DNA of 64,000 nucleotides from Escherichia coli (GTDB lineage: Bacteria > Pseudomonadota > Gammaproteobacteria > Enterobacterales > Enterobacteriaceae): assembly GCF_001677475.2 (NCBI RefSeq), contig NZ_CP012498.1; one strand, 5' to 3'. Below, in pieces: positions 48,001 to 51,000 of the stretch (positions within the stretch are counted from its first letter, which is position 1; every line of letters starts with the position of its first letter). The position numbers were made by a program.

Positions 48001-51000
48001 AAGAAATCACTCTGTACTGGCCGCACGATAGCGCGAATGAGATCTGGTAGCGCCTTAACGGGTAGTTTCTCTGCCACAGAAAGCAGATGATTGAAGCGTT
48101 TTTTTTCATTGGCTATAGTTGCTTTATCTTTCTTGTTTCGGTTCCAGAACATCACTGTCTGTAGCCCTCCTTATCGTGATCAGGATGATGGTTTTCATTC
48201 TAATGCTGTAGTAGTTTCACGTCACGCGCACGTGCATATTCTTCGAAAGCTTCGGCGTTAGCCGGTCAACCAGTTCCGCCTGGTAGGGGTCAGTTTGGAT
48301 ATGGGAAAATTTTGTACGTTAAGCGCATTATTTAACCGTAACGGATTGATTTTGTGTCAACGGCTATCGCTTTTAAATTATCGCCATTGCGGTATTGCAT
48401 TTAGGTTATCCGATTGAGTTCAACTCCCCTGAAAACAGCGTATAGCGGAGGAGTACACCCTATCGCGATAGGTAAGCCTGTTCAAAAAAACAGGCTTACC
48501 GTACAATAATTCTCTATATCCAAACTGACCCCATATACTGTGTATATACGTGGTAAATTAGGCATAAGTAGAGCCACTTATTTTAGGATGCGCGAACAAA
48601 TGAAGTTAAAGAATTGGCTTATTCCACTTATTGTCTGGATGTTTATTTATATTGGTATAAGGCTCGTATTTGATGGTGGGTGTAATGATGGGTGGAGCTC
48701 ATCATCAATTGGTCGGATGGGGGCTTGCTCACATCATGGTGGTGTCAACCATACATCCGGCTTTATAGCATTTATTTTTGCCACCATTGTGTCAGGTTGG
48801 TTACTTTTTAAAATGAATGAGGTTGAGTCAAGGAAAATAAGAAAATCCTATATCGTTGAATCAAGTTTTTTCGAAATGGAATATATTAGCTCTCCATTTA
48901 ACCCATCTGATTCTTTAAAAATTAATTCCAGTGAAATTAATTTTACTCATAGGAGCGGGTGGGATGGTATGCCTGATGAATCCATTAGAGTTGAATCATC
49001 GTATGATTTTTAAAAGATATAATTCTCCTTTCAGAGAAAATAAAAAGTGATATTGAGATGTTTAGCAGAGAAAACTCCGGTTTTGGGTGTGATGGCGAAA
49101 TAGTTTGTATTAGGTTTTTTGACGGTACTAAAGAGGTAAAATTTCAGACTCCGATGATATTTATTAATTTTGAAAATATATCAGACTCAACCCTCAAGCT
49201 GATGACTACCCTTAGGCGAAAACTGAAATTCGACTTCTAGGGAGCCGCTTGGAATTCGGAAAATAAACCACGTTAAGACTAGGTTTTAGCCAAAGGATTT
49301 TTAGGAATCGCCAGAATGGCGGGACAACAGCGGTTTTGGTGTCCGAAATCGTACGTTTATGGTGCAGTAAGTGAGAATTTATTCGTACCAGCTATGGATA
49401 CGTTACGGGCAGTGATTTTTCGCGCCAGACAGCTATTTCTTTGCTGTCCGGTTAACGGCGGTCTTACGTACAGGTTGCCGAACGCAAAATTTGTGCATTC
49501 CGGAAATTTCGGCGGTTGCGGCTTGGAACCCCTTTTATTGTTACAGGAGGCCTGGGCTTGTCTGCTACCGGTCCGGACGGGAGGGACACCGGGAATTTGA
49601 ATCCGGTTAACTGAGCCGGACATACGGTAAATAAGGAATGCAGGCAGAACGGGAAGCACTGTAGGATGAGACAGTAGTCTGGAAGTACATCAAAATTGCA
49701 ACAATAGTACGCTATTGCGTGACATAGATTCGTGACGTATAGTTACTGCATCTTATTTGTATATAACCACCATCAGGTACAAAATTATGTCTCCCGCACA
49801 AGCTAAACAAAAGCAGCATGAACGCTACGAAGCCGTAGCGGTGCAGGTTTTGCGTGGTCGTGCCGGTTACAAGCCTGCCGTAAAAAGCCGTTTCAGTAAG
49901 TCAGCCAATAGCAAATTCTCCCATACTATCGCTTTTGCCTGATCATGAACTTTGAGGCACAATAAACCATCATTCGCTGATGGTTTTTTTATGCCAGTTC
50001 AAGACGTTATTCCCCCCTATGAGCAGATGTACCTGCTAAATCAGCAGTTGATCTGCAACGCTGACCAGCTCAAACATGCCGTTATCACAGTTGGCGGCCA
50101 GGCTGTGCAATACTGGATATCCTATTATCATGCACAATACGGCGACAGATTGCCTGATGAGCGTCTCACCACTTCTGTTGACTGCGACTACAGTGCTCGG
50201 AAAGATGATATTGCGGTTATAGCAAAAACGCTCAACGTGAAAACGTGGGAAAACAAAGACGGTCAGCCCCCATCCCTTGCGCAGTTTATGCTTATCGATC
50301 AGGACACACACGATATCAAACGGGATGATGGACGTTTATTTGCCGTACCGGATGCGCCTGACGAGCCAAATGTGGTGGATATTATCGATCGGCCCGGAGG
50401 CTTCGACCGTTCTGATTTTCTGGGGGAAAAGCTTTACCTGCATACTGCCCCGTTTTATGTAGAAGCAACCGGCCCCGGTATGCCTGAAATGAATGAAAAG
50501 GTAAGGGTGTTGAACCCTGTAGCCTGTATGCGATCGCGCTTTAGCAATCTGATTGCCTTGCGCCGTGATGCTGAAATTGAAATTGCGCGAATTAACGCGC
50601 TCAAGATTCCGTGTTATTTCTTTCTCATCGAACAGTTTGATGAACAGCCGTTCAAAGTTGCTCGAGGAATCTTTATGGATTTATGGCGGCTCGCGAATGA
50701 CGAAAGTTGTCTGCGCCATCAGACCTTCTGGCATAGTTGGCAGGGGCCACTTCTTGAAGGGCAACAAAGTAACAACATCACTCTGATTGATATATTGGAA
50801 GGCGTCCATGCATTCCTGGAAGGGCATCTTGATGACTTTGAAATACCTGAAGCCTTTGTCACCAAAGAATTACCGATAAAGCTCGCACAGTTGCGTGAAC
50901 GCTGGGAGCGTTATGTGGTACTCAATGCTGAATGGGCAGCAAGAGGACGCAGGGGATTTGAACGTAATTACCGTGATGATTAGCCTCCTTTGAGCTGAAA

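Follow-up and report, generated by a model that had tools for sequence, protein, structure and literature searches.

A bicistronic gene pair in the IncF plasmid backbone, proposed to be a MenAT/AbiE-like toxin-antitoxin module with a small antitoxin, lies beside the stub of a Tn3-derived miniature element

The stretch of Escherichia coli DNA analyzed here (64,000 nucleotides of contig NZ_CP012498.1, assembly GCF_001677475.2; hereafter the window) belongs to an IncF virulence plasmid of the enterohaemolysin type that carries many insertion sequences. Between about 49680 and 50983 it holds a self-contained backbone module of two genes beside the parMR partition genes: a gene for a basic protein of 51 amino acids (49787 to 49942, + strand), which we propose to be an antitoxin or partner, and a gene for a protein of 330 amino acids with a nucleotidyltransferase fold (49991 to 50983, + strand), which we propose to be a toxin. 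A promoter-like site precedes the pair and a terminator-like hairpin separates its two genes. Farther upstream, at 49240 to 49277, lies a 38-bp terminal inverted repeat of the Tn3 type. A first-pass annotation of this DNA had taken the two genes for cargo of a Tn3-type element whose end is this repeat. In this study, we characterized the two proteins, the control region between and before their genes, the distribution of the pair, and the origin of the repeat.

The larger gene had been read as encoding an unknown protein of 343 amino acids. The corresponding open reading frame (ORF) does exist, at 49952 to 50983 from a TTG codon, but its start had been misplaced: this TTG lies upstream of a conserved hairpin, whereas the ATG at 49991 is used by public annotations and by all relatives and gives 330 amino acids. 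Searches with the single sequence and with a profile returned no match in Pfam, NCBIfam, PADLOC or PDB sequences, and in PHROGs only phrog_19559, a group of unknown function, matches the protein. The enzyme family is a small one that clusters at 50% into 89 representatives. Most are from Enterobacterales, and there are further members in Aeromonas, Pseudoalteromonas and a Beggiatoa metagenome bin. Two distant members are labeled AbiEii toxin in UniRef. An alignment of 28 members bears out the GG...DxD arrangement that had been noticed at first, with G35, G36, S62, D64, D66 and D130 invariant throughout (330-amino-acid numbering). These residues are laid out as G35 G36, then S62-x-D64-x-D66, and finally D130 within the motif VDIID. 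The enzyme thus has motifs I and II of polymerase beta (hG[GS] ... [DE]h[DE]h) as well as a further acidic position, and D130 is the presumed third carboxylate.

The AlphaFold model of the enzyme, built from the 28-member alignment, has a predicted local distance difference test score (pLDDT) of 88 and a predicted template-modeling score of 0.87. In a Foldseek search of AFDB50 with this model, the hits that follow the family's own members are models named "AbiEii/AbiGii toxin family", with E values of 1e-11 to 1e-8 over about 300 columns. The model resembles JHP933, MenT1, MenT3, MenT4 and models of the AbiEii family, and it has the overall two-lobe architecture of the DUF1814/AbiEii/MenT toxins. 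Profile and structure searches place the large protein in no sequence family of known function and with an AbiEii/MenT-like fold, and the nucleotidyltransferase fold suspected in the first-pass annotation is upheld by the model. On this modeled structure, the enzyme shares the two-lobe fold of AbiEii and MenT but forms a branch of its own in sequence, and the Pfam profile does not count it among that family.

The small basic ORF noticed alongside the enzyme is likewise present, at 49787 to 49942 from the ATG that relatives use, or from 49757 if a longer TTG start is counted. Its 51-amino-acid product (MSPAQAKQKQHERYEAVAVQVLRGRAGYKPAVKSRFSKSANSKFSHTIAFA), annotated as hypothetical protein WP_000074142.1, has a net charge of about +8 and no match in Pfam, NCBIfam or PDB. 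A related ORF of 43 to 61 codons lies directly upstream of the enzyme gene at every locus that we inspected, and this pairing holds even where the enzymes share only about 30 to 38% identity (Aeromonas, Pseudoalteromonas and Beggiatoa). The small proteins share the motif K-x2-Q-H-x-R-Y ... G-Y-K-P-A-x-K-S-R-[FY]-S-K-S ... S-F-A, in which K7, Y14 and F50 never vary and Q10, H11 and G24 hardly do. In one example, the substitutions number 4, 4 and 15 at codon positions 1, 2 and 3, respectively, and this third-position bias indicates that the small ORF is translated. We also folded the two proteins as a fusion with AlphaFold, using a paired alignment of 15 loci and joining peptide and enzyme through a 30-residue Gly-Ser linker. 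The peptide scored pLDDT values of 88, 90, 86, 92 and 78 over successive blocks of ten residues, and the linker scored 35 to 38. The peptide is predicted to form a helix at residues 3 to 22 and after it a beta-bridged extended tail, and the enzyme in turn gains new bridge residues. An extended tail with such high pLDDT suggests that the peptide packs on the enzyme.

The control region hints at an arrangement that would keep the enzyme scarce. A promoter-like site (TTGCGT, 17 nt, TATAGT; 49715 to 49743, + strand) can be read upstream of the small gene and is conserved in related plasmid loci. A consensus scan missed it because its -35 hexamer matches at 3 of 6 positions. The palindrome CAATAG-TACG-CTATTG (49702 to 49717), which overlaps this hexamer and is conserved in loci L012 to L014 and L041, is a possible operator. 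Between the two genes stands a terminator-like hairpin (AAACCATCA-TTCGC-TGATGGTTT followed by a T-run; 49964 to 49990, + strand), and its T-run ends at the ATG of the enzyme gene. The 3' arm of the hairpin holds the sole Shine-Dalgarno-like purines of that gene, GATGG here and GAGGG or AGGGG in other loci. Elsewhere, distant loci included, the hairpin is kept with changed stems (AAACCCTCT/AGAGGGTTT, AAGCCCTCG/TGAGGGTTT, AAGCTCATC/GATGGGCTT and AGAATACCCCTGTG/CATAGGGGTATTTT). When each locus was searched for a stem of 7 bp or more whose end is no more than 6 nt from the enzyme start codon, 13 of the 18 distinct loci had one, against 1.15 expected from shuffled controls. RNAalifold found no structure in a MAFFT alignment of the hairpin region, because loops of unequal length were misaligned. 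If the hairpin stops most transcripts and read-through is poorly translated, the peptide should be made in excess over the enzyme.

Two further observations concern this control region. Upstream of the small ORF, its untranslated 5' region, which takes in the ribosome-binding site (49761 to 49776), shows 81% complementarity with the terminator 3' arm (49977 to 49992), and in close relatives the pairing is kept in part through G-U pairs; it could form an alternative structure with an anti-terminating or coupling role. The non-coding stretch between the Tn3-type repeat and the small ORF, first put at about 480 bp, measures 479 bp to the TTG (49278 to 49756) or 509 bp to the ATG (49278 to 49786). 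In it we considered a single-strand promoter of the Frpo kind, as found in conjugative leading regions, and rejected it: Rfam gave no match in 49278 to 49786, and folding of this segment was unconvincing, with z-scores of -2.5 (+ strand) and -1.3 (- strand, the one transferred).

The gene pair is distributed independently of the repeat. In PLSDB we found the module in 1,098 plasmids, 983 of them at no less than 80% of its length, and the majority are Klebsiella plasmids. The small IncF plasmid pSARB26_03 has the order repA, two hypothetical genes, the pair, parR, parM and the leading region, and it has no repeat. The non-coding IncF backbone immediately 5' of the module (49355 to 49680) is common to E. 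coli and Salmonella plasmids without the repeat and is absent from pKpQIL-type plasmids. In the latter (e.g., pGR-1504), the part homologous to the window starts no earlier than about 49680, and the pair lies just outside the terminal repeat of Tn4401. In pGR-1504 (locus L041, NC_023903.1, 5806 to 6088), this Tn4401 repeat stands about 240 bp upstream of the small ORF, and in the window the Tn3-type stub stands about 510 bp upstream of it; the region 5' of the module has therefore received Tn3-family ends at least twice. The pair is also found in some E. coli chromosomes. Where copies are chromosomal, they form isolated two-gene inserts among housekeeping genes, for example next to mfd or esterase genes. 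INPHARED phage records contained no copy of it. At decayed loci (L027, L033, H139 and H140), the 3' part of the enzyme gene is gone and the small ORF is kept.

Tn3-family terminal inverted repeats are about 38 bp long, start with GGGG and end with TAAG. The sequence at 49240 to 49277 (GGGAGCCGCTTGGAATTCGGAAAATAAACCACGTTAAG, + strand), which the first-pass annotation had described as a 38-bp GGGA...TAAG repeat, is indeed of this type, and its sister copies in the window read GGGGG...TAAG. None of 100 shuffles had a match with 3 or fewer mismatches. The repeat forms the outer (left) end of a 115-bp stub (49240 to 49354) that corresponds to positions 1 to 115 of a miniature element of about 286 bp, with the repeat as positions 1 to 38 and 77 bp of interior (49278 to 49354, + strand) as all that remains beside it. 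By BLAST, element positions 6 to 115 align with 49245 to 49354 at 94.5% identity. Complete elements are found in pEc631_1 (286 bp; L004:6003-6288) and in a ColV plasmid (282 bp; L003:5999-6280); they are non-coding and bear a 38-bp GGGG...TAAG repeat at either end. Hundreds of ColV, IncI and IncK plasmids in PLSDB match only window positions 49238 or 49244 to 49354, in unrelated surroundings with adjacent colicin genes. The junction with the backbone falls at 49351 to 49354, a GTAC common to both partners. Past this GTAC the element goes on as AATTCTG... in other plasmids, and the backbone of pSARB26_03 and pTW10722 enters the same GTACGTTTATGG from quite different upstream DNA.

Non-coding Tn3-derived miniature elements of 50 to 500 bp with two Tn3-type inverted repeats are known as TIMEs, and composites flanked by two of them are known to mobilize DNA (PMC13367494, PMC4133298 for the elements; PMC13367494 for the composites). 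The parent element fits this definition in size and repeats at both complete copies, and the copy in the window is truncated. The parent is probably a different, unnamed TIME member, because its 15-mer and 19-mer words are absent from the sequences listed in the supplement of PMC13367494. TIMEs are expected to have 5-bp direct repeats at their insertion sites and to be mobilized by a transposase acting in trans. The complete L004 copy is flanked by TGATA and TATTA, which are not identical, and no target duplications were seen around the copies of the miniature element. A search for the matching second repeat turned up related inverted copies at 4869 to 4908 (85% complementary) and 41398 to 41444 (77%), but no partner was found to the right of 49240 within the window. 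These copies belong to right-end fragments of the same element (positions 199 to 286 at 4820 to 4907, and 247 to 286 at 41404 to 41443), giving one left end and two right ends of this family in the window. The outer flanks, TTCTA at 49240 and TCAGT at the fragment ending at 4907, do not match; there is thus no target duplication and no sign of a single transposition event. The two other repeat copies, followed in search of an intact parent Tn3 transposon, both proved to be short relics, one of them beside an IS91 fragment. As first noted, no Tn3 transposase (the DDE transposase TnpA, of about 1,000 amino acids) or resolvase is present; the sole ORF of at least 900 codons in the window is that of EhxA (14196 to 17207). 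Of the stretch 49278 to 49750 proposed for a search for res-like sites, only the first 77 bp belong to the element, too little for a res site to be judged, and 49355 to 49750 lies outside it. The early suspicion of a remnant or non-autonomous element was therefore justified: 49240 to 49354 is a dead stub of a non-autonomous Tn3-derived miniature element. A deletion or recombination would have fused it to the IncF backbone, and it presumably has no effect on the neighboring genes.

The surroundings of the stub are rich in similar material. A 44-kb accessory region (4908 to 49239) containing the ehx operon, effector-gene fragments and many insertion sequences is bracketed by outward-facing miniature-element ends at 4907 and 49240. 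The stretch around 47122 to 48532 holds unusually many miniature-element relics. One, at 47122 to 47316, has Tn3-type arms of 36 nt (GGGGTTTGAGGGCC...ACGGTAAG) with 123 nt between them; we take these arms to resemble the Tn1000-type repeat. Another, at 48286 to 48532, is 247 bp long with Tn3-type arms of 48 nt (GGGGTCAGTTTGGATATGGGAAAATTTTGTACGTTAAG). Immediately left of the repeat is an AT-rich segment (31 to 37% G+C) with two + strand ORFs, neither of which has a family match: 48540 to 49013 (157 amino acids, with an apparent hydrophobic, possibly membrane, segment and the motif GACSHHGGV) and 49058 to 49240 (60 amino acids), whose end coincides exactly with the repeat. The junction of this left flank with 49240 is spanned by no PLSDB record and no complete E. 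coli genome.

We propose, with moderate confidence, that the pair is a toxin-antitoxin module of the MenAT/AbiE kind whose small antitoxin is new. The analysis shows the anatomy, the conservation, the fold and the motifs; toxicity, substrate, mode of neutralization and the regulatory role of the hairpin are the parts that we infer. This proposal is based on the strict pairing of the two genes, the predicted tight down-regulation of the enzyme, the toxin-like fold, the selfish distribution of the pair and its position beside the partition genes. In this model, one promoter would drive the 51-amino-acid gene, and the hairpin with its T-run would end most transcripts and hide the ribosome-binding purines of the enzyme gene, so that little enzyme is made. 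The enzyme, as an AbiEii/MenT-type nucleotidyltransferase toxin, would add nucleotides to the 3' ends of tRNAs or to other RNA and thereby arrest translation. The antitoxin would bind and block the enzyme through its N-terminal helix and extended tail, and its binding might lead the enzyme to inactivate itself by phosphorylating the invariant Ser62, two residues ahead of the catalytic Asp64, as happens in MenA1-MenT1. For a plasmid, the module could serve for addiction (post-segregational killing), for abortive defense against phages, or for both.

Several observations weigh against this proposal. The AbiEii profile PF08843 matches neither the query nor the 28 family members nor 11 of the most distant relatives, which were drawn from a search of 1.8 billion proteins as a possible bridge. 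No PDB chain matches the enzyme in sequence, no PADLOC model covers the pair, and Foldseek hits in PDB are not significant, with viral poly(A) polymerases at the top (E value of about 0.03). The spacing from GG to DxD, noticed early on as non-canonical, is 27 residues, compared with 9 to 13 in the classical arrangement. Motifs III and IV of the DUF1814 C-terminal lobe have only candidate counterparts in the enzyme, the invariant R183, N186, E197 and R200. The proposed binding of the peptide to the enzyme is deduced from pLDDT and secondary structure in a model that came without a contact map, and the retention of the small ORF at decayed loci amounts to few cases only. The enzyme could also be harmless and have another role. 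We found no publication on the gene pair in a search whose coverage of the literature was incomplete.

A harmless enzyme would presumably work together with its partner. The basic protein could then be a cofactor, a substrate or a targeting subunit with which the enzyme modifies a host or plasmid molecule, for instance in counter-defense, in establishment after conjugation, or by nucleotidylating the conserved Tyr or Ser residues of the peptide. This would agree with the arrangement on IncF plasmids, where the pair is co-oriented with leading-region genes (methylase, antirestriction, ssb-side) just past parMR, with the invariant Tyr14 and the conserved Ser and Tyr residues of the peptide, and with stable carriage on more than 1,000 plasmids, and it does not require the enzyme to be toxic. 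However, the chromosomal copies are isolated two-gene inserts in a non-conjugative context, the nearest structural relatives are toxins, tight down-regulation of the enzyme by the terminator and an occluded ribosome site would suit a dangerous protein, and no convincing single-strand promoter structure lies upstream. We regard a non-toxic role as the main rival to the toxin-antitoxin reading, though an unlikely one. A specific form of it has the nucleotidyltransferase act on or through the 51-amino-acid partner, by nucleotidylating its invariant Tyr or Ser or by peptide-guided modification of nucleic acid, for establishment or defense and not for classical addiction, under the governance of an unusual element that would terminate transcription and also occlude the ribosome site near the start codon; to this we give a little less credence still. 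We consider it improbable that the small ORF merely specifies a leader or attenuator peptide, with no function of its own, for a stand-alone enzyme. The terminator does come right after the small ORF and abuts the enzyme start codon, and the 81% complementarity of the 5' untranslated region to the terminator 3' arm would allow an alternative pairing. Yet the amino acid motif is kept across orders while the DNA diverges with a third-position bias, in the window the stop codon precedes the hairpin by about 21 nt and does not overlap it, unlike in classical attenuator geometry, and the fusion model places the peptide confidently on the enzyme.

The reading of the two genes as cargo, in the form of a composite of Tn3-family or miniature elements whose left end is the repeat at 49240, has the orientation of the repeat toward the genes in its favor. 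The right-end fragment at 4820 to 4907 also has the same orientation, so that on a circular replicon the backbone would lie between a left and a right end, and composites of two such elements do move DNA (PMC13367494). But the stub stops at 49354, where it meets backbone DNA that runs on uninterrupted in repeat-free plasmids; the module has other neighbors in pKpQIL-type plasmids, which share homology from about 49680 only, and it occurs in chromosomes; the outer flanks differ; and no Tn3 transposase or resolvase is present. For these reasons we abandoned the cargo claim of the first-pass annotation and hold it to be highly improbable. Nor do the fold matches favor an aminoglycoside- or lincosamide-type antibiotic-modifying nucleotidyltransferase, since the matches to MenT, JHP933 and AbiEii are better, longer and include the helical C-terminal lobe. 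The gene moreover lies in the plasmid backbone, outside resistance regions, is obligately paired with the small ORF, and matches no resistance model of NCBIfam; an antibiotic-modifying role therefore seems scarcely credible.

If the pair does work as a toxin-antitoxin or abortive-infection module, over 1,000 sequenced plasmids of enterobacteria carry in their backbone a stability or defense determinant that has gone unnoticed, among them the pKpQIL-type KPC plasmids of Klebsiella and the enterohaemolysin and enterotoxigenic E. coli (ETEC) virulence plasmids of E. coli. The MenT/AbiEii superfamily would gain a sequence-distinct gammaproteobacterial branch, together with a new family of minimal antitoxins of about 50 amino acids, and through the invariant Ser62 the pair would be a simple system in which to test autophosphorylation induced by an antitoxin. 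The repeat is in itself nothing unusual, and the gene pair matters mainly through its presence on major resistance and virulence plasmids. The locus also teaches that a Tn3-type repeat beside unknown genes need not imply cargo.

Other features of the window form the setting of the module. To its right lie a parR-like gene and parM (51085 to 52487, - strand), identified from public annotations and a weak NCBIfam ParM match; they are backbone neighbors outside the module. A terminator-like hairpin (51058 to 51077, - strand) stands between the convergent enzyme and parR-like genes. Beyond them is the 3' end of a group II intron (53114 to 53190, - strand; Rfam RF00029, 65 bits) with a fragment of an HNH-like ORF (53196 to 53534, - strand). 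This remnant stops about 140 bp before an IS21-family element (53677 to 55928, + strand; IstA at 53677 to 55176), and a second group II intron end at 61336 to 61419 is 86% identical to the first. On the other side of the module, a 196-amino-acid ORF (46084 to 46674, + strand) is an effector-gene fragment that matches the type III effectors EspK/GogB in their C-terminal part (E value of 1e-27, far below the cutoff), and inverted and direct copies of its region lie near 35006 to 35636 and 8113 to 8210. A 59-nt repeat family (TACACGCTCGTAAG...GACGGCCCGC...) has four copies, at 4912 to 4970, 10427 to 10485, 36797 to 36855 and 38131 to 38189, one of which begins 4 nt from where the miniature-element fragment has its outer end (4907).

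Comparison with known systems brings out both the likeness of the pair to toxin-antitoxin modules and its distinctness. In the type III system ToxIN, the antitoxin region comes first and is followed by a Rho-independent terminator that limits read-through into the toxin gene. The pair resembles ToxIN in this gene layout only: ToxI is a tandem-repeat RNA, whereas what lies upstream here is an ORF that codes for a conserved protein, and the fold of the toxin is unrelated. We searched 49200 to 51100 for tandem repeats of the ToxI kind, found none, and rejected membership in type III. In the AbiEi-AbiEii and MenA3-MenT3 systems (DUF1814, PF08843), the antitoxin is a winged helix-turn-helix protein of about 200 to 300 amino acids (COG5340) whose gene overlaps the toxin gene; here the partner has 51 amino acids, a terminator separates its gene from that of the enzyme, and PF08843 matches no member of the enzyme family. 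The C-terminal lobe motifs III and IV of MenT3 are K189 and D211. JHP933 of the Helicobacter pylori pair JHP932/JHP933, which shares 11% sequence identity with the enzyme, is encoded in a chromosomal plasticity zone, and its function is also unproven. The invariant Ser62 invites a closer comparison. In MenT3 (S78/D80) and MenT4 (S67/D69), a phosphoacceptor stands beside the catalytic Asp, as do T39 in MenT1 and T65 in AbiEii, and antitoxin binding is accompanied by autophosphorylation of MenT3 S78 and of its equivalents T39 in MenT1 and T65 in AbiEii (PMC7450476, PMC11375011, bioRxiv 10.64898/2026.01.19.700257). Ser62 sits two residues before D64, a Ser/Asp spacing that recurs in MenT3 and MenT4. 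The nearest counterpart of the pair is MenA1-MenT1 of Mycobacterium tuberculosis (Rv0078B/Rv0078A), in which the antitoxin is also small (68 amino acids) and its N-terminal helix suffices. There is no detectable sequence similarity between either MenA1 or MenT1 and the proteins described here. The enzyme here has 330 amino acids and a long helical C-terminal lobe, compared with 195 amino acids in MenT1; its partner is strongly basic, a terminator lies between the two genes, and the hosts are Gammaproteobacteria and their plasmids. The pair is unannotated and probably a new variant of the MenT/AbiE kind.

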